Shown here one piece after another: positions 7,892 to 64,000 of a DNA stretch of 64,000 bases; position 1 is the first letter of the stretch, and each line of letters begins with the position of its first letter. The translations under genes were made by a program, and so were the position numbers. The notes below the pieces were generated by a model that had not been told where the DNA came from, searched no databases, and saw only the letters and a list, made by a program, of their open reading frames with translations. This DNA comes from Candidatus Krumholzibacteriia bacterium. GTDB taxonomy: Bacteria; Krumholzibacteriota; Krumholzibacteriia; WVZY01; JAKEHA01. The DNA lies in assembly GCA_036273975.1 (NCBI GenBank), contig DASUGO010000106.1:4943-68942 (forward strand). The letters run 5' to 3'.

Positions 7892-7909
7892 GCGCTGCGG
7901 TGCTTTCCG

Positions 7910-8419
7910 TCAGAAGAGTTTGCGCACGTCCGCCGCGGGCAGGATGCGTTTCAACACGGCGCGCTCGCGCCGCTCCATGCGGGCGGCGTCGGCGTCGTTC
8001 TCGTGATCGTAGCCGATGACGTGCAGCATGCCGTGGACGACGATGCGCAGCGCCAGATGGGACACGTCGACGCCGAGGCGGCGCGCGTCGCGCGCGAGCG
8101 TGTCCAGTGACACGTAGATGTCGCCCGCGGTGCCGTCGCGCGGCCCGGGATCGTCGCGATAGGAAAAGGAGAGCACGTCGGTGGGCTTGTCCTTCCCGCG
8201 GTAACGGCGGTTGAGCCGCCGGATCTCGCGGTCGTCCACGATCACGACATTGACGGCTTCCCGCGCGGGCCGCAGCCCCGCGGCCGCTTCCTCCACGCGC
8301 GCGAACCACGCGGCGGAGAGCCAGCGCGGGCGGGCGCGGCTAACCCGATTCAGCGACGCTTTCACCGGCCGCCTTCCAGTCCTCGGGGGCGAGCGCCTCG
8401 CTCTGCCCCGGGTACGCAA
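7910..8419 (-). CDS. ybeY: rRNA maturation endoribonuclease YbeY
   Basis: The motifs DVLSF and HGMLHVIGYDHEND (H3xH) are present. It overlaps the upstream pgpH-like gene, so the true start is probably an internal codon. Confidence 0.8.
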   Translation of the reverse strand: MRTRGRARRSPPRTGRRPVKASLNRVSRARPRWLSAAWFARVEEAAAGLRPAREAVNVVIVDDREIRRLNRRYRGKDKPTDVLSFSYRDDPGPRDGTAGDIYVSLDTLARDARRLGVDVSHLALRIVVHGMLHVIGYDHENDADAARMERRERAVLKRILPAADVRKLF

Positions 8420-46073: not shown

Positions 46074-47950
<1,877 letters not shown>

Positions 47951-54357: not shown

Positions 54358-54993
54358 ATGCTGGACTTCGCATCCCAAGAAGAGATCGCCCGCGCGATGC
54401 TGGCGATGGTGCGCTACCTGCCCGCCCTCGTCCGGGCGTTCGAGGCGGGTGTTATCGACCTCGGCCTCACCATCACCGAGCGGGCCTTGAGCCGCGACGC
54501 GGAAGGCACTGTGCTCCCCACGCTCGTGGTCAAGGGCGGGCACCTCACCTACCACCTCGGCCTCCGGAACGCCATTGAGGACTTCCTCGCCGTCGACCGC
54601 GAGGCCCGGCCGGTTCACGTGGACCCCGGCCTCGATGACGACACTTACGCGCAAGCGAAGATCGCCGACATCATCTCCGGGCGGCTGGCGCTCGTAAAGC
54701 TCGTCGAGGAGAGCTCGGACCTCGCGGAGGCGCAACAACGCATGAAGGACCTGGGCAAGGGGTTTGCCTGGCTCCGCTCGGTTGTCGTGGACGGCCCAGA
54801 GAACGTCGAGAGACCCGTGTGCAAACTGGTTGGGACCGACGGCAACGTGTTCGCCGTCATCGGTCGGGTCCGAGAGACACTCCAACGTGCGGGGCAGACT
54901 AGCAGTGCGTCGGAGTTCGTGAAGCGAGCATTTGCCGCTCGGTCCTACGACGAGGTGCTCCGGCTGTGCATGGAATACGTGGAGGTTCGATGA
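54358..54993 (+). CDS. Hypothetical protein (211 aa), translationally coupled to the tyrosine integrase
   Basis: An ORF with good codon usage. Its stop overlaps the integrase start as ATGA. It is the first gene of a plus-strand block within a minus-strand region. Confidence 0.45.
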   Translation: MLDFASQEEIARAMLAMVRYLPALVRAFEAGVIDLGLTITERALSRDAEGTVLPTLVVKGGHLTYHLGLRNAIEDFLAVDREARPVHVDPGLDDDTYAQAKIADIISGRLALVKLVEESSDLAEAQQRMKDLGKGFAWLRSVVVDGPENVERPVCKLVGTDGNVFAVIGRVRETLQRAGQTSSASEFVKRAFAARSYDEVLRLCMEYVEVR

Positions 54994-55886
54994 TGCAAGC
55001 GATGACGCTTCAGGCAGCGATCCAACGATTCGAGGTCCAGCTCCGGGCGGACGGGAAGAGCCCCCGGACCCGGGAGTGCTACCTCTGGGACCTGGAACGC
55101 CTCGCCCGGGCTCTGGGCCCCAGGACTGCGGTGCGGTCTATCACGCCCCACCGGCTGGCCCTGTTCGTCAACTCCTCGGGGTTCGCCTTGACCCCGGCCG
55201 GCCGGCCCAAGAAGCCCGCGTCCGTCAACCGCTCAAAGACCGCCCTCCGGGTGTTCTTCCGGTTCCTCGTCGACTCGGACTACTTGACCCGAAACCCGGC
55301 CCGACTTGTGCGATACGCGCGCCTGCAGCAGCTCCCAGCGCGGGCGATGAAAGCCGCGGAAGTGGATCAGCTGCTCAAGACGATCGGCAAGCACCGCGGG
55401 CCGCTCGCCCGGCGCGACGAACTGATGTTCCGGCTCATGCTGGGTACGGGAATCCGGCTGGGGTCGCTGGTCGGCTTGAACCTCGGGGATCTGGACTTGA
55501 AGGCGGGGACGCTGCGTATCAAGGCGAAGGGGGGCGTCGAGCAAACGGTATACCTGAACGCAGGCCTTCGGCGGGACCTCGGCCTTCACGTCAAGACGCA
55601 GACGGGCGGTGAAGGTTCTGTCTTCCGCTCGCACGGGGGTGGTCGAATCGGCCCCCGCCAGGTCCAGATTCGGTTTGCGCATTGGCGGGACCGGGTGGGA
55701 CTCGGTCAGGTCTTTACGGTGCATTCCCTTCGCCACACCTTCGCGACCCGGCTCTATCAACAGACCCGCGATCTGCACCTCGTTCGGGAGGCTCTCGGTC
55801 ATGCGAGCGTCGGGACAACTCAACGGTACGCGGTGGTGGACAAGCGGAGCCTTCGATCTGCCATTACTCGCCTGTCAGTCCCGTGA
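54990..55886 (+). CDS. Tyrosine-type site-specific recombinase/integrase (XerC/XerD-like)
   Basis: An N-terminal SAM-like core-binding domain (CYLWDLERLARAL) and the catalytic domain R...HSLRHTFATRLY...LGHASVGTTQRY with the catalytic Tyr context. Confidence 0.85.
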   Translation: MMQAMTLQAAIQRFEVQLRADGKSPRTRECYLWDLERLARALGPRTAVRSITPHRLALFVNSSGFALTPAGRPKKPASVNRSKTALRVFFRFLVDSDYLTRNPARLVRYARLQQLPARAMKAAEVDQLLKTIGKHRGPLARRDELMFRLMLGTGIRLGSLVGLNLGDLDLKAGTLRIKAKGGVEQTVYLNAGLRRDLGLHVKTQTGGEGSVFRSHGGGRIGPRQVQIRFAHWRDRVGLGQVFTVHSLRHTFATRLYQQTRDLHLVREALGHASVGTTQRYAVVDKRSLRSAITRLSVP

Positions 55887-56039
55887 TGCTCTCCCTGAGA
55901 AAGTCCCTCGCTGACCCGCCAAGGCAAGGCGCTCGATTCTTTCCTATGCTATTCTGATAGTCTGACCAACCGGACCTTCAGTTTCTTGTACCCATCGGAA
56001 ACGCAGTGGTTACAACGCTCATGACGTGCACCGCGACCG

Positions 56040-56786
56040 ATGGAGCCTGGCGGTAGGTTGACGGCCGGTCGGCACTGGGCCTCATCCGAAGGAACCATTG
56101 TATTGCTGCGAGTCAGCGTCGTCTTTGTCTTGCGCGCGCTGGTACGTTCCGAGTGGCGCATGGTGCGCCTCCGAGTCGAGCTTGAGCGCACACGCCTTGC
56201 CAACCGCGTCGACGTTGCTCCGCCTCTGATCGCCCAGCAGTTGCTTGTCTCGGGCGAGGATCACAGACACGCCCGGCATCCAGGCTTCGATCTATTCGCA
56301 ATTGGCCGCGCACTCTGGCGGCGTGTGGCACATGGATCGCGTGAAGGTGCCAGCACAATCGAGCAGCAGGTAGTCCGTACAATCACAGGGCGATACGAGC
56401 GCACCCTTCGTCGCAAATTGAAGGAGATACTGCTCGCCATCCTCGTGGCCCAGTCCTTTCCGAAGGAGATCCTCCCATCTGTATATCTCCAGATCGCTTA
56501 TTATGGTTGGCGTATGAATGGTTATCAGCAGGCGTGCCAGCGGCTTGGGCTGCATCCCAGCTCCTTGGCGCTGGACGAAGCCGCCGGTTTGGTCGCGCGG
56601 CTGAAGTATCCCGAGCCGAGAACCGCACCGTCCACGCGAACGCTTCAGATCGGTTACCGTACGGAGCACCTACTTGGCCTTTATCGGCGGCACGTGCATG
56701 AAGGGAATTACAGGCATCTCAATGGCAAGACCGTTTGCAATAGAGCCTCGGCTCATGCAGCTACTGAGCCCATACCCGAGCGCTGA
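56040..56786 (+). CDS. Monofunctional peptidoglycan glycosyltransferase (GT51 transglycosylase)-like protein
   Basis: An N-terminal TM (IVLLRVSVVFVLRALV) and GT51 motifs (GEDHRHARHPGFDLFAIGRALWRRVAHG...GASTIEQQVVR...RRKLKEILLAILVAQSFPKEILPSVYLQIAYYG). It lies in the lower-GC cargo region. Confidence 0.55.
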   Translation: MEPGGRLTAGRHWASSEGTIVLLRVSVVFVLRALVRSEWRMVRLRVELERTRLANRVDVAPPLIAQQLLVSGEDHRHARHPGFDLFAIGRALWRRVAHGSREGASTIEQQVVRTITGRYERTLRRKLKEILLAILVAQSFPKEILPSVYLQIAYYGWRMNGYQQACQRLGLHPSSLALDEAAGLVARLKYPEPRTAPSTRTLQIGYRTEHLLGLYRRHVHEGNYRHLNGKTVCNRASAHAATEPIPER

Positions 56787-57405
56787 CGAGCTCCGCGCGG
56801 CGTTATCCGGAGGCACGCGCCGTAGCCGAGAGATCGTCACGCGTCTCTGGCTGACCGAAGGCCTCCCCGCTGCCTTCCGAGGTTGCCCCGCGATATACGA
56901 AGAAGTGCGCGGCTGGCTCGGCACTCAACTTGGCATCCATCCGAAGGAGATTACGCTCATCGGGAGCGCGAGAGTCGGCTACTCACTCGCCCCAGCGCCC
57001 GATTTCGGAAGGCGCTTTGGCAAACACTCTGACCTCGATCTGAGCGTCATTTCCGCGCAGCTATTCGCACGTTTGGTTACGGCGTTCAACCTTTTCGCAG
57101 ACGATTACAGACAGAACTCCGCGGTCCCCAGGAGCGATCGCGAGCGTGAGCTCTGGGACGACAATCTCCAATTCGGTCGGCGCAACATTCCTCGAGGCTT
57201 TCTGGACGCCAGAAAGATACCGAACTTCGCCCGTTACTCGGATTCTCAAAACATCAACCAAACAATGTGGGTGCTGCTGAAAAAGTTTGAAGTCACTCCT
57301 GGAGCACCCGAGGTTCGGAGGGTTTCCGTCCGCGTGTACCGAGATTGGCAATGCTTCATCGACCAAGTTTCGCTGAATCTTCGAAGCGCGCTTCCCACAG
57401 CGTAA
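56755..57405 (+). CDS. Pol-β-fold nucleotidyltransferase (minimal NTase; SMODS/CD-NTase-like or MNT-like)
   Basis: The signature LIGSARVGYSLAPAPDFGRRFGKHSDLDLSVI matches the hG[GS]...D.D motif of pol-β NTases. Downstream acidic candidates (FADDY, WDDN) could supply the third catalytic residue. The start (56722 or 56755) is uncertain because it overlaps the GT51-like ORF. Confidence 0.45.
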   Translation: MQLLSPYPSADELRAALSGGTRRSREIVTRLWLTEGLPAAFRGCPAIYEEVRGWLGTQLGIHPKEITLIGSARVGYSLAPAPDFGRRFGKHSDLDLSVISAQLFARLVTAFNLFADDYRQNSAVPRSDRERELWDDNLQFGRRNIPRGFLDARKIPNFARYSDSQNINQTMWVLLKKFEVTPGAPEVRRVSVRVYRDWQCFIDQVSLNLRSALPTA

Positions 57406-57632
57406 TCTGCGTTAGGGCAAATACGCGCTACGCCTTTAGGGCAACGCCTCCCCGGCATCCCGAATCCCTCGGGCGGCATCAGGGCAATGCAGGGCTTCGC
57501 TGTGATCGACAACCGGGGCCCGCCCGCTGCCGTAATTGGTCCTCTCCTTGTTGCAGTCCATTCAACTCCGTTTCCGAACAGGCATCCATGCAGACTTGCG
57601 AAACGCTGTGCTCGCGCCAAGACGCCTGACTG

Positions 57633-58352
57633 ATGATCTGCGCGCTCATCGACTACTGGCGCTATAGGCGACGCCCAGGGCGATTCGGCATCATTGGCCA
57701 GAGGAGCCTGATGACCTCGGCGTACAATGGGACGTTGCCGGACGCCTTAGTCGACCGCCTTCGGCCGGGAGACATCCTGTTTATCCAGAGCCTGCATTCC
57801 TTCCCGGCCTGGCTGGTTATGTACCTCACCAAGTCCGAGGTCAGCCATGTCGCTTCGTATATCGGTGGCAAACGTATCATTCACGCAACTTTCAGCGGCG
57901 TTACCGAGGAGCCACTGGCCGTGCTATTCACGCCTAACACGCTCCTATTCGCCTGCGGAACGCGCTCCACGTCCGAGCAGCAAACTTCCTTCGTTCCAGC
58001 TGCGAGAGCGCGTGTGGGGAGGCGCTATGGTTGGTTCTGGGTTGTTCTCAAGGGGCTATTTATCTTCACCGGCCGGGACCCGCTTTACTTCCGATGGAGC
58101 TTCTTTCTTGATTTCGCGGTCCTATTTGTCGCCCTTGGCGCACCGTTCGTTGCCCTAGAATGGTTCCCTTTTCCATTGCTGCTGTTTCCTATGTACTTCC
58201 TCGTTGTTATTATGAACTCGCTGATTGCACACCACCGACCGCTGCCCGTCGTCGGACTACTTGCCAAGCCCGTTGAGGTACTCATGATCGCGTGGGCGGA
58301 AGGGTGGGACTTCTACCTGAATCCAGCGGGTGGCGCGGATCCCGATTCCTAG
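57633..58352 (+). CDS. Membrane protein with an N-terminal permuted papain-fold (LRAT/YaeF/NlpC-P60-like) domain and C-terminal multi-TM region
   Basis: A His-first permuted NlpC/P60 pattern (RPGDILFIQS...SHVASYIGGKRIIHA, then a Cys in LLFACGT). The C-terminal ~110 aa form 3-4 hydrophobic helices (WFWVVLKGLFIF; FLDFAVLFVALGAPFVAL; LLLFPMYFLVVIMNSLIA). Confidence 0.4.
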   Translation: MICALIDYWRYRRRPGRFGIIGQRSLMTSAYNGTLPDALVDRLRPGDILFIQSLHSFPAWLVMYLTKSEVSHVASYIGGKRIIHATFSGVTEEPLAVLFTPNTLLFACGTRSTSEQQTSFVPAARARVGRRYGWFWVVLKGLFIFTGRDPLYFRWSFFLDFAVLFVALGAPFVALEWFPFPLLLFPMYFLVVIMNSLIAHHRPLPVVGLLAKPVEVLMIAWAEGWDFYLNPAGGADPDS

Positions 58353-58403
58353 GGCATTGGTACAGATCTGCACCCCCGGCGGGCTAATTCTTGCTCTCAG
58401 CAA

Positions 58404-58557
58404 GGCCTCCGCCACCGTTGCCACCCGGCTTTGCCTTCAGACTCGCGATCTCCATCTCGTTCGAGAGGCCCTCGGGCACGCGGGCGTCGGGACGACACAG
58501 CGGCACGCTGTCGTGGACCGGAAAAGCCTCCGCACCGCCATCGCGCGTCTCCGATAG
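58404..58557 (+). pseudogene. Degenerate 3' fragment of a tyrosine integrase gene, paralogous to 55738-55886
   Basis: The translation VATRLCLQTRDLHLVREALGHAGVGTTQRHAVVDRKSLRTAIARLR aligns with the intact integrase C-terminus FATRLYQQTRDLHLVREALGHASVGTTQRYAVVDKRSLRSAITRLSVP. The nucleotide similarity is roughly 70% by eye. It has no N-terminal part. Confidence 0.55.
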
Positions 58558-58592: not shown

Positions 58593-60155
58593 CTAGAGAA
58601 TGTCGTCTAAATACTTGACGACCCCCAGCCGCAAGCGGTGTGGAAAGACCAGCAAGAACAGGGGTAGGAGCTGAGGACACTGGCCAATACCCACCGGTAG
58701 TTCATCGGCGGCCTTCGCAGCCTCTTCAACCAGTTGCTTCCAGCTCTGCGTTTGATTCGGAAATCGACTCCGCAGTTCGCCGTGTCGTGCACGATACGTG
58801 TAATACTCCCAAGTATCCTTGGGCACAAACTCAGACATGTTGCTTCGACTTATCGGTCGCCACTTCGTTTCAAGGTATTTTCGCATGCCGCTTCGTACGG
58901 CAAGCGTGACCAGTGAGTCAAGCGCATACGAGTTGCCTGCAAATGTTTCATCCGCAGCCTCAACCGCGAGGCCCATCTGCCCCCGAACGATTGACTCGAG
59001 TTCGTAATACGGGCTCATCAGTTCATACTGGTCGTGCTCGTTGGCGGCGATAATCGAATTGATCAGTTTCTGCAAGAGCTTCATCGCCCACTCCACTTTC
59101 TCCGTCGCCTCAAGGTACCAGATGATGTTCAAGAAGCACGGAAACGCCGCTTCCGAGTACAGCATGAACGCTTCTTGATGCTGTTCGATGAACTGACTCG
59201 TATCATCGGATCTCCAATCCGACTTCCCCAAGAGCTTCCTGGTCAAGCCGAGAGCCGCCAAGTATCCAGCAATGAGTGTCGCCCGGTACCTAACAAACCG
59301 ACCGTCGAAGAAACTCGTTCCCATCAGCAGATCGGGGCTATTCGCTGCCTCTTTTTCGAGCTCCCCGAGCGCGCGTTCCACGCCCTCCAAACACAAGGAG
59401 ATAGTCGTCCTGAACTCTCCATAACTCCCTACTTTTTCTGCAAGAGCACAGGCCGTCGCCGCAACAATGACCAAGCTGTCGGCAACCGCCCACCAGTTCT
59501 TTTCCCGTTCGTGCGGGGCAATCAGATAGCTTCCGATCAGCAATCCACTAGCTGCAGCGCGGCAGCCATGTTTCGCATCTGTCTCGGTGTCGAGTCCCGT
59601 CAGGGACCGGAGAATCTGAGCGAGATCGCTTCTGGGAGCCGGAGCACGCCCATCGCGCGCATAAAGGTTAAGGAACGATCGCAGATCACTGACTTCCCGG
59701 GGCAAGAAGTGTTCGCTTGCATTCGTGAACTGAGTGAGCAATTGGCCCTTCACAAGCACATCGAGGGTGTTCCCTCCCGAACGCCTCCGGTCCTCGTTCC
59801 GGTCGTCGATCTGGCGTCTTACAGGATCTTTCAGATCTCCGGAGACGACCAGACAAGCTCGGTGGCGTTTGGACTTGTCGACGCTGGGGTGATGGATTGC
59901 AATATCGAGAAGCTCTTCAACCTCCCCGACTATCTGACGCCATCGGGCAAGTGTAATGTCTCCGACTTTCAGCTGGTAGGCGCACGGCGTACCGTCTGGA
60001 TGGATGGTGATGACGTCTTTGCCTTGCTCGTCCGGTCCGTGCGGAGACAGGTGCACTATCTCATGCCCTTGCAACGCGAGCAGCTGACAGAACGGGACCT
60101 GAAAGGCGCGCTCCTCGACATCAGTCAACCAGTTTTCGATTACCCTCTCGATCAT
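58593..60155 (-). CDS. Hypothetical 520-aa protein with a putative N-terminal PD-(D/E)xK-like nuclease motif
   Basis: In the first ~70 aa the N-terminus (VEERAF...HLSPHGPDEQGKDVITIHPDGTPCAYQLK) has an E...PD...Q-x-K arrangement reminiscent of restriction-endonuclease-fold nucleases. The rest is a long α-helical region. It lies in the lowest-GC part of the window. Confidence 0.4.
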   Translation of the reverse strand: MIERVIENWLTDVEERAFQVPFCQLLALQGHEIVHLSPHGPDEQGKDVITIHPDGTPCAYQLKVGDITLARWRQIVGEVEELLDIAIHHPSVDKSKRHRACLVVSGDLKDPVRRQIDDRNEDRRRSGGNTLDVLVKGQLLTQFTNASEHFLPREVSDLRSFLNLYARDGRAPAPRSDLAQILRSLTGLDTETDAKHGCRAAASGLLIGSYLIAPHEREKNWWAVADSLVIVAATACALAEKVGSYGEFRTTISLCLEGVERALGELEKEAANSPDLLMGTSFFDGRFVRYRATLIAGYLAALGLTRKLLGKSDWRSDDTSQFIEQHQEAFMLYSEAAFPCFLNIIWYLEATEKVEWAMKLLQKLINSIIAANEHDQYELMSPYYELESIVRGQMGLAVEAADETFAGNSYALDSLVTLAVRSGMRKYLETKWRPISRSNMSEFVPKDTWEYYTYRARHGELRSRFPNQTQSWKQLVEEAAKAADELPVGIGQCPQLLPLFLLVFPHRLRLGVVKYLDDIL

Positions 60156-60720
60156 GCCAGTCCTTCCGCTTGCGCTCCATCAACTCGGTAAAACGCCGCT
60201 TGCAGTCTTCCTTCTGTTCCCATGCGGGCATCTCCTTCCGGATGTGCGCACCCAATTCCGGACTAACGACGAGCGCCGGCATCTTCGGCTTTCCGCTTCC
60301 TTCATCAAAATCAATTTCCAAACGCTCCAGCGCTTCGAGAAACAGATCAAAGGAAAACGGCTTTCCGCATCCATCAACAGCGGTACCCGCTTCCTCAGAA
60401 ACACGCGATACAGTGGAATACATCATTCGGGCAAGGTTCCCCGCCATTTCCTCGGCGACTTTGTCAAACTTCTCCATGATCTCGGCAACAGATAGGTCTT
60501 TCAATTCCTCATGAGTTATCGTGAAGTCCACGCCGAGATCCTTGTAATCCATTTGACGCCGCCCACCCTCCACGGTTCTGTAGGCGCGCGTGTCTCCTTC
60601 GTGTTGCGCCGAACGCCCCACTGTCGCAAGGAATGGGTCGGCCGAATGAACGCGCGCGCGTACGCGCTGATTGACCAAGTTCATGAGTTCGCGATGTATC
60701 GCCGGGAAGTCTGGAAGCAT
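60121..60720 (-). CDS. Hypothetical 199-aa protein, overlapping upstream partner of the 520-aa gene
   Basis: An ORF co-oriented with the 520-aa gene and overlapping it by 35 nt. Acidic and helical, with no recognised motif. Confidence 0.35.
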   Translation of the reverse strand: MLPDFPAIHRELMNLVNQRVRARVHSADPFLATVGRSAQHEGDTRAYRTVEGGRRQMDYKDLGVDFTITHEELKDLSVAEIMEKFDKVAEEMAGNLARMMYSTVSRVSEEAGTAVDGCGKPFSFDLFLEALERLEIDFDEGSGKPKMPALVVSPELGAHIRKEMPAWEQKEDCKRRFTELMERKRKDWHDREGNRKLVD

Positions 60721-61264
60721 AGGTTCTTTCTTGTTCTAAGTCCTTTTGTGCATTTGGACGAGGGGCACACCGCGTCGGCTTTTCGCGGTGTCAGGCGCAT
60801 CTCCGTCCGGTTTCCTCTGCATCAGGAGGCCATTCGTTCTTAGAGCGGCAGCCGGGTCGGAGAACCATTCCAGGACATCCCGGCAGCGAACGGGAAAGTC
60901 ATGAACGAAGTCGCGGTAGTGCGTCATGGGAGCGGTGTCAGAGTCTATCGGGCGCGCTGCCCAGGGTCTAGCAAAACGCCCCGTTTCTGACCCATTTGCT
61001 GTACCGAGGGATAGCGCCCCGTCGGGGGGCTGGGATCGGCGTAACTGGCTTTGGGGGAATGTGATAGGCGGACCGCCCCGGGCGGTCGAGAGCCCCTGGA
61101 GGCCCAAACTAGCCCGTTTCTGAAAAACCCTTCTTACGGTCTACTTAGGGACAGCAGATTTCCCTCCATTATAGCGATCTGATAGAACGCATTAGGCGAA
61201 ATCGGGGGATAGCAGGGGGACAGCAGCGGTACAGCACGCGCCCGCTCGCCTTCTCCACGAGCAC

Positions 61265-61549
61265 TCACCGTCGCTTCGAGCGCGACGCGCGCTGCGCCCG
61301 TCGCCGCGCCGCACGGTTCATCGGTGCGTCGGCCGCCGGCGCATCGACCCCCGGGTGCTTGCGCCGAAACTCCACGGCCGCACACCGCTCGCACCAGTAC
61401 TCGCCGCCCGACATCGTGTAGCCGTCCTCTCCGAGGGAGATCACCACGTTGCATTTCGCGCAATGCGTGGGCTCGAACGCCGGCGGGTTCTCCAGCTTCT
61501 CGAAGTTGTATTCGTTGGTCCCGTAGTAGACGTACAGCTCCGTCTCCAA
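61265..61549 (-). CDS. Small zinc-ribbon-like protein (two CxxC pairs), hypothetical
   Basis: HCAKCNV...YWCERCAAV, followed by a basic tail. The call is tentative. Confidence 0.3.
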   Translation of the reverse strand: METELYVYYGTNEYNFEKLENPPAFEPTHCAKCNVVISLGEDGYTMSGGEYWCERCAAVEFRRKHPGVDAPAADAPMNRAARRRAQRASRSKRR

Positions 61550-61776: not shown

Positions 61777-64000
61777 CTACTGACCTCGCGGTGCCTTCTG
61801 AAGCTGCCGATCGAAGTCTGCGAGCATCTCCTTGATCTCCGCGTCGTCCGGGTGGCGTGTGAGCCACTCGGTCAGGTAGCCGCGCGCACGGTCGTACATT
61901 CCCGCGCGCACTCCAAGTGTGTAGCCCATCATGACGAGTTCCTGACTCTCCGGGTCCACGCGCAAGATGGGATCGATCAGCTCCAGCGCCGCGGGGTAAT
62001 CACCGATTTTCTCGTAAACACCCGCGAGCCGGTACATCAGCTGCATGTCACCCGGACTCTCGCGCAGGGCATCCAGATAGAACTGCACCGCCTGCGTGGT
62101 ATCGCCAGCATCGAGATAGTAGAGCCCCAGCAACTGGCGAGGCGGCTCGAGCTGCGGAGAAATCTGCCCCGACACTGCCATGTATCGCGCCGCCTGCTGG
62201 TAGTCCCCTTCCCGGTGCTTCTCATAGGCGAGCTGCACAAACGCGGCCGAGTAGTTCTGAATCAGGTGCTCGATGTACGGCTGCAGGTAGATACTGTTGT
62301 CCCGCTTCCAGTTCTTGTCGAGAATACCGCCGTAGGTGAACTCGTTGACGATACAATTCTCAAGCTTCGGCACGTTCACCATGTTCTCGCCCTTGCGACG
62401 CACCACCTTGTACGCCAACCCTTCCATCTCCAGAATGTCCCGGTATGGCGCAAAGGTGCTGGACGGGATCGTCACCGCAAAGTAGATGGGGCGCTCGAAC
62501 TTGTTCGTGCGAAGGATGTGGTCTACAGCGAGGTCGCGCGGTAGTAACCACCGATCCCCTGACGGGACCATCTCAATATTGTCGATTTGCTCGTCGCTCC
62601 AAGCGATAGGCACCCTTGGCTCGTTGTCCCGACACTGTTTCATATACCACGGCGTGCTGAGCAGGCTTAGATTCACGACGCGCACATCCTTCCGATACCC
62701 CTCCACCTCCTGGATGTACCATAGCGGAAACGTGTCATTATCGCCGTTGGTAAACAGAATGGCGTTCGGCTCCAAGCAAACAAGCATGTTGCGACCGTAC
62801 TCGGCGCAGGTGTGGTTCTTCGACCGGTCGTGCATGAAGTAGTGCTGCCGGAGCGTGGTGAAAGGCATCGCAAGCAGCAACGCAACGCACGCCACAGTGG
62901 TCGGAACCGCGTACCCGCCACGCGCAAACAGATTGCGAAGTTCCGCCAGCACACTGCACGCACCAATGCCGATATAGATCGCAAAGTAGTAGAATGCCGG
63001 GGAGTAGAAGTAGTCGCGCTCACGCACCTCGCTGTCTGAAAAATTCAGAAAGATGATCAACCCAACGCTCATTACCAGCAATGTTGTAAACAACATTATG
63101 AACGTCTTCCGATGCTTGGCAAACTGGTCGACCATACCCCAGATGCCGAGTCCCACAGGAATCAGCGAACCTAGGTTGACATTCCCGACGTACGCTTGGA
63201 ACATCTGGAACTGGGCTTGGAAGTACGCGTTGAAATGTTGAAATTGAAAGGCCCAGGTCGCCTTGCGATGGATCATACTGGTGGGCGGGTACTGCTCGCG
63301 GCGAATCACCGCGTACAGGTTGCGCCACGACTCCGGGTCCGCCTCATCGAGGGCAGGGTTGTGCAAAGAGCGTATGAGCAGCATGAGGTGCACGCTGAGA
63401 CCGAGGATGAAAAGCCCCGTGCATACGGCGGCGAACGGTCGACCACGACCGTAAAGCCAAATTGTAGCCGCCGCCAGCCCAACCAAAAAGAATAGCGTGA
63501 GCCCGCTGTCACGGTAGATGGTTACGTCAGCGACAAATATTCCCAACGCCCCGCTAGCAATGAACCACTCCAACGTGAAAAAAGGACGATCTTTCGACAT
63601 CAGCACGAAAACAAATATCCCCGAGAAGACGAGCACGGTGCCGAGGTGGAAGCCCACACTCAACGCGAGCAGGTAGAAGGTGAGATAAATAAGCGACGTC
63701 GACCGCGTCGTCTTGGGCATATCACCCCACTTGATGGTGAGCCAGGTCATGAAGCCCATGAACGCGGTGCTCATGCTGTAGACCTCGGCCTCTGTGGAGT
63801 TCGTCCAATAGGTGTCACTGAAAGCAAGGAACAGAGCCCCAGTCAACGCCCCACCAACACGCACAACCTGGTCCGCGGTCGTTTGACTGCGCCCCTGCAT
63901 GTCATCCAAAAGACGAACAATCAATGCGTAAACAAGGAGTACTCCGGCCGCGCCACAAAACGCGGAGAGGAGATTGACGCGTTGAGCTACCGAGAGAAAC
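61777..64000 (-). CDS. DUF2723-family integral membrane protein (putative glycosyltransferase) with C-terminal TPR repeats. The 5' end runs off the window.
   Basis: About 11 TM helices in the first ~450 aa with a DUF2723-like layout, then TPR repeats (YYLDAGDTTQAVQFYLDALRESPGDMQLMYRLAGVYEKIGDYPAALE). The frame stays open upstream of the annotated TTG to the window end (..LLSAFCGAAGVLLVYAL). Confidence 0.7.
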   Translation of the reverse strand, partial: FLSVAQRVNLLSAFCGAAGVLLVYALIVRLLDDMQGRSQTTADQVVRVGGALTGALFLAFSDTYWTNSTEAEVYSMSTAFMGFMTWLTIKWGDMPKTTRSTSLIYLTFYLLALSVGFHLGTVLVFSGIFVFVLMSKDRPFFTLEWFIASGALGIFVADVTIYRDSGLTLFFLVGLAAATIWLYGRGRPFAAVCTGLFILGLSVHLMLLIRSLHNPALDEADPESWRNLYAVIRREQYPPTSMIHRKATWAFQFQHFNAYFQAQFQMFQAYVGNVNLGSLIPVGLGIWGMVDQFAKHRKTFIMLFTTLLVMSVGLIIFLNFSDSEVRERDYFYSPAFYYFAIYIGIGACSVLAELRNLFARGGYAVPTTVACVALLLAMPFTTLRQHYFMHDRSKNHTCAEYGRNMLVCLEPNAILFTNGDNDTFPLWYIQEVEGYRKDVRVVNLSLLSTPWYMKQCRDNEPRVPIAWSDEQIDNIEMVPSGDRWLLPRDLAVDHILRTNKFERPIYFAVTIPSSTFAPYRDILEMEGLAYKVVRRKGENMVNVPKLENCIVNEFTYGGILDKNWKRDNSIYLQPYIEHLIQNYSAAFVQLAYEKHREGDYQQAARYMAVSGQISPQLEPPRQLLGLYYLDAGDTTQAVQFYLDALRESPGDMQLMYRLAGVYEKIGDYPAALELIDPILRVDPESQELVMMGYTLGVRAGMYDRARGYLTEWLTRHPDDAEIKEMLADFDRQLQKAPRGQ

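Follow-up and report, generated by a model that had tools for sequence, protein, structure and literature searches.

A widespread two-gene cassette encoding a predicted Mrr-type nuclease and a partner with remote similarity to HK97-fold capsid proteins: a candidate anti-phage defence system

What kind of system is encoded by two overlapping, AT-rich genes at the far end of a mobile region in a Candidatus Krumholzibacteriia genome? A reading of the sequence alone (hereafter the first-pass annotation) had pointed to a nuclease with an accessory protein and to an anti-phage or toxin-immunity function. In this study, the pair was investigated in a 64,000-nt stretch of contig DASUGO010000106.1, hereafter the window, using sequence searches, family alignments, structure models and comparison of homologous loci. 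The two-gene cassette most likely represents an anti-phage defence system that has not been described before.

Both ORFs were recovered as two co-oriented overlapping genes, in agreement with the first-pass annotation. The large gene (58593..60155, minus strand) encodes 520 aa, and the small partner gene (60121..60720, minus strand), which is the upstream member of the pair, encodes 199 aa; positions 60121-60155 (35 nt) are common to both. Coding on the opposite strand had been named as a possible refutation, and the minus strand was upheld by 83 and 57 homologues (E down to 1e-171) and by confident AlphaFold models, with a mean pLDDT of 88.5 for the large protein and 85.5 for the small protein. 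A 385-aa plus-strand ORF (59034..60191) lies opposite the true coding strand and was rejected as an antisense shadow.

The GC content of the module is 0.553, compared with 0.637 for the whole window. The module had been described as the most AT-rich stretch of the window, and this holds at the scale of ~2.1 kb, because the sliding windows of module length with lower GC (2/1238) both overlap the module. In a 1-kb profile, the kilobase 63001-64000 has a GC content of 0.548, slightly below that of the module. The integrase remnant that had been placed beside the module was also found: positions 58400-58557 (plus strand) match the 3′ end of an intact integrase gene (54966-55886) with ~80% identity over ~130 nt, and 36 nt separate the end of this remnant from the stop codon of the large gene. 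A search for island borders revealed neither a repeated tRNA-Met 3′ end nor long flanking repeats. The 545 bp upstream of the module gave no Rfam match, and promoter and terminator motifs in this segment did not exceed their frequency in shuffled sequence.

The N-terminal ~147 residues of the large protein (residues 1-147; 59715..60155, minus strand) are predicted to be an Mrr-type PD-(D/E)xK nuclease with an intact catalytic set, on the basis of invariant residues, the AlphaFold model, Foldseek matches and a link to the Mrr_cat family. The residues E15, E43, D47, Q61 and K63, whose codons all lie within 59967-60113, are invariant in alignments of 41 and 68 sequences; the 68 orthologues share a mean identity of 34%, yet the catalytic set is 100% conserved. 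The first-pass annotation had proposed an E...PD...QxK arrangement, of which E15 (in VEERAF) and Q61 and K63 (in AYQLK) were borne out as invariant, whereas the catalytic Asp is not located in the literal PD. The P41-D42 position varies across homologues, and the catalytic Asp is D47 in an invariant GKD just ahead of strand β2. The D/E/K triad sought in an alignment of homologues is thus present as E15, D47 and Q61-x-K63 in 68/68 sequences. In the AlphaFold model, the domain comprises a helix (15-28), three strands (32-36, 48-51 and 57-63), a second helix (69-84) and a further strand (99-104), which corresponds to the α-β-β-β-α-β core with an acidic residue in helix 1, the Asp where strand 2 begins and QxK in strand 3. 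The expected nuclease-fold similarity was likewise recovered in Foldseek local matches to NucS (2vld, prob 0.98) and EcoO109I (1wtd, prob 0.85).

Assignment to a named family was approached through the homologues. The large protein of the window had no match to Pfam Mrr_cat (PF04471) at E≤1 and did not reach the gathering threshold, and Mrr_cat was matched by one of the 41 family members (E 0.0076). A Rhodococcus orthologue passes Mrr_cat with 22.8 bits against the gathering threshold of 21, and it aligns with the family alignment at an hhalign probability of 99.2% (E 9.5e-20); therefore, homology to Mrr_cat is supported transitively, and membership by threshold is not. The NCBI name of the Rhodococcus orthologue is 'restriction endonuclease'.

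The remainder of the large protein (residues 148-520 and the stop codon; 58593..59714, minus strand) is modelled as a mostly α-helical domain with a pLDDT mostly above 85. A helical part of ~430 aa had been described; its α-helical nature stood, but its length is ~370 aa. Invariant residues in this domain are N220, Y383 (in PYY), W432, W472 and P505-H506-R507. The domain has no Pfam match, and its Foldseek matches are weak and correspond to generic repeats (HAT, TPR, NprR, RapI and IFIT; E>0.03). A profile search with the C-terminal domain returned 12 matches, all of which were full-length family members, and no other effector domains. We presume that it serves as a sensor or partner-binding domain. 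No Walker A motif was found in the large protein and no NTPase match was obtained in Pfam or PADLOC, and on these grounds a STAND protein was rejected.

The junction between the two genes (60121..60170, minus strand) comprises the 35-nt overlap and a purine-rich, Shine-Dalgarno (SD)-like stretch, which lies inside the small gene and directly upstream of the ATG of the large gene. The overlap is exactly 35 nt in 82/82 scorable loci, with hardly any variation in the junction DNA, and a GGAGG-like motif is located ~7 nt 5′ of the start codon of the large gene in the family loci. This junction is a predicted translational-coupling signal. Programmed frameshifting into a fusion was rejected, given that at every locus the large gene, which lies in the +1 frame, has a start codon and an SD-like motif of its own; a fused-protein reading was also rejected, since no fused small-large proteins occur among the family matches. 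A small upstream gene that overlaps the toxin gene is the usual layout of type II toxin-antitoxin systems, and the present loci have a small upstream gene with predicted coupling to the downstream gene (82/82).

Both proteins belong to large unnamed families, as judged by sequence searches. At E≤1e-3, the small-protein family contains 2,519 cluster representatives, of which almost every one is ~198 aa long. Searches of Pfam, NCBIfam, PHROGs and PADLOC with the two window proteins gave nothing significant, and in PADLOC-DB v2.0.0 no family was matched by either protein at E≤1. The conserved pairing on which the first-pass annotation depended was confirmed, with the small gene directly upstream of the large gene in 80/81 loci. 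The protein distance matrices of the pair correlate at r=0.85, a value attained in 0/999 permutations; the small and large proteins co-diverge. No third conserved component was found across 81 loci, where neighbourhood clustering yielded antisense shadow ORFs alone. An AAA_15/21 ATPase, which lies upstream in some loci, was considered for this role and rejected, being confined to a few related genomes.

The pair is distributed patchily: it was found in ~20 bacterial phyla and five archaeal lineages, and one genome holds two copies at most. The pair of Rhodococcus qingshengii pdjl-6-4, M0639_RS31050/RS31045, is carried on a megaplasmid, and in one genome an IS-associated 2.9-kb cassette that contains the module is duplicated with 99.9% identity. 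The two-gene cassette has spread horizontally. In searches of phage genomes, the small protein (tblastn, 50,697 genomes), its family consensus (tblastn) and the large protein gave no match; among 2.9 million viral contigs there was one locus, again with both genes paired.

Both ends of the small protein are invariant, the N-terminus as MLPDFP and the C-terminus as a basic helix (…RKxxW.DRE.NRKLVD), and the last 60 residues form two long helices in the AlphaFold model. The pI of residues 171-199 is 9.1, and both whole proteins are acidic (pI ~5.6). No recognisable DNA-binding domain of the antitoxin type was detected in the small protein. In PDB sequence searches with single sequences, profiles and the consensus, chance matches alone were obtained (for example, glutathione transferase, pArc and a designed protein).

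Comparison with viral protein families suggests that the small protein is remotely similar to HK97-fold major capsid proteins over part of the fold. The family consensus matched NCBIfam NF042927 (capsid_Caudo_2) at E 1.4e-7, a figure to be read with caution, since this charged helical protein seems to draw E-values that are too favourable (12 matches at E≤0.01 vs ~0.3 expected). The alignment pairs residues 25-136 (60313..60648, minus strand) with positions 53-164 of the 280 in the model, and this part contains a β-hairpin (44-58; E-loop-like), a long helix (78-111; spine-helix-like) and a Gly-rich loop. Consensus sequences of three sub-clades matched NF042927 in the same register, giving a collinear 112-residue alignment. 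NF042927 was the family most often matched, and the next best family for the consensus had E 0.017. Individual members matched NF042927 in 4/34 cases (best E 0.0017), and 5/34 members matched PHROG major-head-protein families (544, 3922 and 1650). Among the viral models of BFVD, the top Foldseek match was a coat protein (prob 0.99, TM 0.47-0.50, 187 columns). The best NF042927 score, 30.8 bits for the family consensus, lies below the curated cut-off of 80 bits; comparison of the small family with the P22 coat protein alone by hhalign gave a negative result (prob 0.2%), and Foldseek against the PDB gave no convincing capsid, with an encapsulin at rank 48 (prob 0.13). A complete HK97 fold (N-arm, E-loop, P-domain and A-domain; ~280 aa or more) is not encoded, as the protein has 199 aa and covers model positions 53-164. 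Nor is the setting that of virion morphogenesis: no portal, terminase, protease or scaffold neighbours are conserved across the 81 loci.

The resemblance could instead be a chance or convergent likeness of a helix-rich adaptor, in which case the pair would still be a nuclease and a regulator with no link to capsids. The sub-threshold NF042927 score, the negative P22 comparison, the lack of a noteworthy PDB capsid match, the inflated E-values and the empty consensus tblastn against phages are all compatible with this explanation. We nevertheless regard it as doubtful, for NCBIfam, PHROG and BFVD Foldseek point independently to the same protein class, and NF042927 stands far ahead of the next family, with a collinear match in the same register in four consensus sequences.

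Genomic context bears on the function of the pair. Flanking ORFs in the family loci match Type ISP/IIG restriction-modification (R-M) enzymes, DrmA/DrmD (DISARM), BrxH, PbeA, MADS, Schlafen-AlbA_2 and Mrr_cat_2. Single loci lie beside GmrSD with AAA_15/21 and a PRTRC element, beside an SNF2/DUF1156/DUF499 cluster, beside AbiEi/AbiEii, and beside GIY-YIG, Hypoth_Ymh and a kinase. Many of the ORFs in these flanks are ordinary or lack annotation. Enrichment of defence genes among the neighbours was judged solely against a literature figure of ~1.5% of bacterial genes as predicted defence genes (PMC13434031). The cassette recurs in defence islands and mobile elements and is spread patchily and horizontally, as is typical of a defence-type setting. 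A defence role is therefore supported by this context, that is, by guilt by association. The anti-phage or toxin-immunity interpretation of the first-pass annotation is accordingly retained with respect to the defence-type flanking genes, which constitute contextual evidence, but no PADLOC model matches the module. A classical R-M system was rejected: the conserved genes are two, and methyltransferase or methylase domains occur in 2/140 flanking ORFs.

With slightly better than even confidence, we propose that the module is a self-contained mobile defence unit of the toxin-antitoxin or abortive-infection type, with a nuclease effector and a capsid-like regulatory partner. The 520-aa protein would be the effector, an Mrr-type PD-(D/E)xK DNase joined to a protein-recognition (sensor) domain of ~370 aa, and the 199-aa protein would be its obligatory partner, translated from the same mRNA, with the fixed 35-nt overlap and the internal ribosome-binding site coupling the synthesis of both. 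In uninfected cells, the partner may bind the helical domain and silence the nuclease, until a phage-derived cue removes or alters the partner. Given that the partner is similar to the half of an HK97 capsid protein that holds the N-arm, E-loop and spine helix, the most plausible cue would be either the capsid protein of the phage or its machinery for capsid assembly. The released nuclease would then cut DNA. Binding of the partner, inhibition by it, the trigger, the DNA substrate and the defence phenotype are inferred in this proposal.

A more specific version sees in the small protein a truncated HK97 capsid protein, exapted as a built-in capsid mimic, which would be displaced when capsids are produced in an infected cell, thereby freeing the Mrr-type nuclease. 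We consider this version unlikely. The small protein might then be a pseudo-ligand that occupies the helical sensor domain of the nuclease, or it might co-assemble with the capsid subunits of an incoming phage, using E-loop and N-arm contacts like the native ones. If this version were true, a capsid fragment domesticated from a virus would serve as the sensor or antitoxin, and it would have been conserved in Archaea and Bacteria alike together with an uninterrupted 35-nt dual-coding junction.

The same components could also be assembled into other functions. The pair may be a modification-dependent Type IV enzyme of the Mrr kind, in which the nuclease is always on but cleaves modified foreign DNA alone, and the helical domain and small protein provide specificity for DNA or its modification instead of detecting a phage protein. 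The Mrr_cat relationship, the presence of other restriction systems among the neighbours and the absence of a conserved adjoining methyltransferase, as expected of Type IV enzymes, agree with such an enzyme, and the invariant basic C-terminal helix of the small protein (pI 9.1) could touch nucleic acid. However, no DNA-binding or modified-base-reading domain (such as winged helix, SRA or YTH) was found in either protein, and both are acidic overall. To our knowledge, a large helical repeat domain with a capsid-like partner is without precedent among Type IV enzymes, which also counts against this assignment, and we hold it to be quite unlikely. A selfish toxin-antitoxin (addiction) pair that stabilises mobile elements and has no role in phage defence is very unlikely in our estimation, since dedicated defence genes appear enriched among the neighbours and simple addiction needs no large sensor-like domain, even though gene order, overlap, the small-upstream and large-downstream layout, the plasmid location, adjacent integrase and IS fragments and duplication of the 2.9-kb cassette would all suit it. 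Many toxin-antitoxin modules turned out to be defence systems, and the addiction reading therefore overlaps the defence unit proposed here.

Finally, among solved structures the nuclease domain matches NucS best, which might indicate a housekeeping nuclease of DNA repair or recombination (NucS/EndoMS-like) with an accessory factor. This match is limited to the generic catalytic core, and the patchy spread over distant phyla and archaea, a copy number of up to two per genome, the variable defence-rich neighbours, the low GC beside an integrase remnant and the occurrence on a plasmid all speak against a housekeeping role, which we regard as highly improbable. The mobile defence unit with a nuclease effector and a capsid-like regulatory partner remains the reading that we prefer.

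The first-pass annotation included neither the capsid likeness of the partner nor the wide spread of the family and its constant 35-nt overlap. The family comprises ~2,500 sequence clusters at 50% identity, and the module is missing from curated Pfam, NCBIfam, PHROGs and PADLOC-DB 2023. If the proposed reading is correct, a two-gene immune module is widespread across many bacterial phyla and several archaeal lineages, the theme of 'sensor plus PD-(D/E)xK nuclease' known from Avs and Upx is extended to a minimal NTPase-free form, and a virus-capsid-derived protein is added as a further type of host-encoded component. The question is thereby raised of whether a domesticated capsid fragment serves as a decoy, a bait or an antitoxin for capsid sensing. 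Independently of function, the strict 35-nt overlap provides a clean natural case of long-term dual-coding constraint. The cultured carriers Rhodococcus qingshengii (plasmid) and Jidongwangia harbinensis exist, and experiments are therefore feasible.

Several known systems share parts of this architecture, and no precedent for a capsid-derived, host-encoded system component was found in the literature searched. With Type IV enzymes of the Mrr/Mrr_cat (PF04471) type, the module shares the catalytic type (PD-(D/E)xK core, D…QxK and helix-1 glutamate) and the lack of a cognate methyltransferase. The catalytic domain is N-terminal here and C-terminal in Mrr; moreover, the module has no winged-helix DNA-binding domain and adds the ~370-aa helical domain and an apparently obligatory overlapping partner gene. 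In Avs7, Avs8 and Avs10, helical sensors enclose HK97 capsid proteins and set off nuclease effectors (bioRxiv 10.64898/2026.01.04.697583), and Mrr-like effectors occur in most Avs2 proteins (PMC13601566). The module resembles Avs in having its nuclease effector at the N-terminus, ahead of a helical repeat domain, in the HK97 capsid as the proposed ligand class, and in a defence-island lifestyle in bacteria and archaea. It differs in having no STAND NTPase or Walker A motif, in its length (520 aa vs >1,000 aa for Avs) and in the lack of a PADLOC Avs match; in addition, a capsid-like protein is encoded by the module itself, whereas the capsid is encoded by the phage in Avs. Upx, a broadly distributed system that responds to a structural or packaging protein of the phage, joins a sensor to a PD-(D/E)xK nuclease and contains no NTPase (PMC13601566). 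The module is similar to Upx (Gao_Upx) in pairing a sensor-type domain with such a nuclease in NTPase-free form and in its broad distribution, but Upx consists of one polypeptide of ~1,200 aa in which the nuclease is C-terminal and a β-rich sensor recognises terminase, and no sequence match exists between them.

The proposed logic of a toxin restrained by a capsid-responsive antitoxin would, by analogy, recall CapRel(SJ46), and the gene layout recalls type II toxin-antitoxin systems. CapRel(SJ46) is a fused single protein, the toxin of which pyrophosphorylates tRNA and the antitoxin element of which responds to a phage capsid protein. There is no homology between CapRel(SJ46) and the module, in which the antitoxin-like partner itself is capsid-like. 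With regard to HK97 capsids, the part of the HK97 model to which the small protein aligns comprises the E-loop, the spine helix and the early P-domain, but the protein is 199 aa long and lacks the A-domain and the C-terminal P-domain sheet. Like encapsulins, it is the product of a cellular gene outside any virion module; truncated encapsulins of family 4 keep the A-domain, which is the opposite part of the fold to that represented in the small protein.

The two genes lie on the minus strand, the small gene (60121..60720, 199 aa) upstream of the large gene (58593..60155, 520 aa), and 35 nt are common to both, the overlap that the first-pass annotation had read. The 2,128-bp module (58593-60720) has a GC content of 0.553 against 0.637 for the window, and no stretch of that length is lower in the GC profile, which bears out the earlier remark that the window is most AT-rich here; its GC3 (0.60-0.64) is under that of typical neighbours (0.74-0.87). 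A 715-aa ORF with many hydrophobic segments (61777-63924, minus strand) has an overall GC of 0.568 but a GC3 of 0.746, and low GC alone is thus an unreliable sign of foreign origin in the window. The minus strand is the coding one: its products have database homologues (83 for the large and 57 for the small protein, E down to 1e-171 and 1e-60) and confident structure models (pLDDT 88.5 and 85.5), and a 385-aa plus-strand ORF was rejected as their antisense shadow. Both proteins, computed from sequence to be soluble and acidic, are named 'hypothetical protein' from a Candidatus Krumholzibacteria MAG in the source annotation.

The two genes form a strict unit. In a pattern scan that covered one genome for each species, 80 loci encoded a large-protein relative; they belong to Bacteria (Acidobacteriota, Poribacteria, Latescibacterota, Chloroflexota, Nitrospirota, Planctomycetota, Verrucomicrobiota, Bacteroidota, Actinomycetota, Proteobacteria, Desulfobacterota, Gemmatimonadota, Saccharibacteria and others) and Archaea (Bathyarchaeia, Aenigmatarchaeota, Nanoarchaeota, Nitrososphaerota and Methanosarcinales). 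The small gene stands immediately upstream of the large gene in 80 of 81 loci, the sole exception being cut by a contig end, and the proposed pairing is therefore conserved. The overlap is exactly 35 nt in 82/82 scorable loci (start codons GTG 46, ATG 24, TTG 9), with a GGAGG-like motif about 7 nt ahead of the large gene's start. The DNA of this dual-coding junction (60121-60170 in the window; L001-L091 elsewhere) is almost invariant from Archaea to Bacteria (…GAATGGCGTGATCGAGAGAGYAATCGAAAACTGGTTGACTAR), and no lineage with a resolved overlap was found among the junctions of L001-L091. Pairwise distances of the small and large proteins are correlated (r=0.85; 0/999 permutations as high), and the two proteins are therefore inherited and diverging together. 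Among 1.84 billion cluster representatives, a profile search counted 2,519 small-protein relatives at E<=1e-3 and 2,063 at 1e-10, virtually all of about 198 aa. Clustering of all flanking ORFs gave no third conserved gene, the next 'families' being antisense shadows of the pair. An AAA_15/AAA_21 (OLD/Gabija-type) ATPase gene immediately precedes the pair in some loci, and a fragment of one does so on the Rhodococcus plasmid (L089 6211-7392; L082 6989-8125; L085 2894-3322); it was rejected as a core component by tblastn, being confined to a few related genomes. At one locus beside AbiEi/AbiEii (L090), just a 44-aa small-gene remnant is called (7901-8035) upstream of an intact large gene; the copy may be decaying, or the start may be mis-called.

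The large protein has no match in Pfam, NCBIfam, PHROGs or PADLOC, and its assignment as a nuclease follows from motif, fold and transitive homology. Its invariant residues concentrate at the N-terminus, where E15, E43, D47, Q61 and K63 are conserved in 68/68 orthologues at a mean identity of 34%. In the structure model, E15 lies on the first long helix, D47 right before strand 48-51, and Q61-x-K63 ends strand 57-63; by alignment and model, this predicted layout is the PD-(D/E)xK arrangement in its Mrr form (D…QxK). Foldseek against PDB locally matched about 130 residues to NucS/EndoMS (2vld, prob 0.98) and EcoO109I (1wtd, prob 0.85). Tblastn of plasmids gave a single relative, a 511-aa gene of Rhodococcus qingshengii pdjl-6-4 that NCBI names 'restriction endonuclease' and that shares 35 nt with an overlapping 195-aa hypothetical gene. 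The 511-aa protein passes the Pfam Mrr_cat threshold (22.8 vs 21 bits, residues 12-121), which the window protein does not reach, and aligns with the family profile over 415 columns (hhalign probability 99.2%, E 9.5e-20); its 195-aa partner aligns with the small family at 96.8%. The N-terminal nuclease proposed earlier is thereby upheld, with one correction: D42 varies, so that P41-D42, the literal 'PD', are not the conserved residues. Residues 148-520 are mostly helical, with invariant N220, Y383 (the tyrosine of PYY), W432, W472 and PHR 505-507; Foldseek gave just generic likeness to HAT/TPR/RRNPP/IFIT-type repeats, and a motif check found no Walker A motif.

The small-protein model has a helix at the N-terminus, followed by a beta-hairpin (44-58), a helix of 34 residues (78-111) and a Gly-rich loop, and closes with helices at the C-terminus; it has no fold match in PDB. 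Its best match among predicted viral structures is a 181-aa 'coat protein' entry (prob 0.99, TM 0.47/0.50, 187 columns). With E-values that are optimistic for a charged protein, 5/34 members weakly matched three PHROG 'major head protein' families (best E 0.002), 4/34 matched NF042927 'HK97-fold major capsid protein', the NCBIfam family matched by most members (best E 0.0017), and the family consensus matched NF042927 over 112 collinear residues (25-136 vs 53-164 of 280; E 1.4e-7) at 30.8 bits, far under the model's 80-bit cut-off and with only part of the fold present. Three sub-clade consensus sequences match in the same register, and in the HK97 fold the aligned span 53-164 takes in the E-loop and the spine helix and reaches into the beginning of the P-domain. 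The hhalign comparison of the small family with P22 coat protein alone was negative. None of 50,697 phage genomes matches the small protein, and its gene occurs on 1 of 2.9 million viral contigs, there too as the pair; it is not a virion gene. A further weak NCBIfam match, to NF049850 'WBM0748 family T4SS-associated protein', was given by the window's small protein (residues 8-100; E 5e-6) and by the consensus of its sub-clade (E 1.7e-4); WBM0748 reportedly figures in work on Wolbachia T4SS effector candidates and transcriptomics.

An integrase-marked segment of low GC (about 49-61 kb, GC 0.56-0.61), at whose edge the module sits, follows the sole tRNA of the window, a tRNA-Met (46074-46150, plus strand) whose 3' end is not repeated elsewhere within the window. 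The integrase remnant reported beside the module was recovered just downstream of the large gene (58400-58557, plus strand), 2.5 kb past an intact tyrosine integrase gene (54966-55886, plus strand) whose 3' end it matches at about 80% identity. Bracketed between them are a monofunctional transglycosylase-like gene (56040-56786), a 243-aa gene with a weak phrog_32008 match (56674-57405) and a C92/NlpC-P60-like amidase whose C-terminus is hydrophobic (57633-58352); the whole (54966-58557) has the look of insertions, nested or in tandem, at an integrase-associated site. No gene is called in the roughly 545 bp upstream of the small gene (60721-61264), which gave no Rfam match and promoter/terminator motifs at chance level. 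Next comes a GC-rich, zinc-ribbon-like 94-aa ORF with two CxxC pairs (61265-61549), a gene call that recurs on an independent contig (L086).

For 140 ORFs directly next to the pair in other genomes, Pfam most often matched helicase/ResIII, Type ISP restriction, Mrr_cat_2, Schlafen-AlbA_2, UvrD and DNA methylases, and PADLOC most often matched PbeA, MADS, Type IIG/I R-M, DrmA/DrmD, BrxH and Hachiman helicase. Single loci carry GmrSD with AAA_15/21 adjoining a PRTRC mobile element, an SNF2/DUF1156/DUF499 cluster, AbiEi/AbiEii, or GIY-YIG with Hypoth_Ymh and a large kinase; other loci have unremarkable neighbours. The MAG OZ244870.1 holds two 99.9%-identical 2,908-bp cassette copies 660 kb apart (L021 9332-12239; L022 9332-12238), each made up of the pair with about 110 bp of upstream and about 650 bp of downstream sequence, the latter containing a 104-aa ORF; the left end of the L021 copy adjoins an rve-type transposase fragment and a 130-bp repeat.

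The pair is best read as a defence module of toxin-antitoxin or abortive-infection type, in agreement with the nuclease and accessory pair first suggested, for which a defence or toxin-immunity role had been named. The effector would be an Mrr-type DNase with a helical protein-recognition domain, controlled by its translationally coupled small partner. The partner would inhibit the nuclease, because a capsid-like partner made constitutively alongside the nuclease would be lethal if it were an activator, and authentic capsid protein or capsid-assembly machinery would take it off. In this scheme we infer the partner binding, the trigger, the substrate and the defence phenotype.

As less probable readings, the pair may be a modification-dependent Type IV enzyme or, improbably, a repair nuclease. 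The duplicated cassette and the fixed overlap could likewise be those of a purely selfish addiction module. A spurious capsid likeness would remove the proposed trigger; from the profile matches and the model, we consider a real HK97 relationship probable.

The defence module is proposed to work like Avs, Upx and CapRel-type sensor-effector systems. No PADLOC model matches it, and literature searches turned up neither a system in which an Mrr-type nuclease is paired with a capsid-like protein nor a text that names the Rhodococcus accessions. Working precedents are published: the helical sensors of Avs7/8/10 close around HK97 capsid proteins and switch nucleases on (10.64898/2026.01.04.697583), the majority of Avs2 proteins have Mrr-like effectors, and in Upx, which has no NTPase, a sensor is coupled to a PD-(D/E)xK nuclease (PMC13601566). 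The module shares its catalytic domain with Mrr, although the window protein is under the Pfam threshold; unlike Avs it has no NTPase, and its small protein matches HK97 capsid proteins partially and under the cut-off. It would be a nuclease-based defence module with an unusual, possibly virus-derived partner, whose capsid link is sub-threshold.
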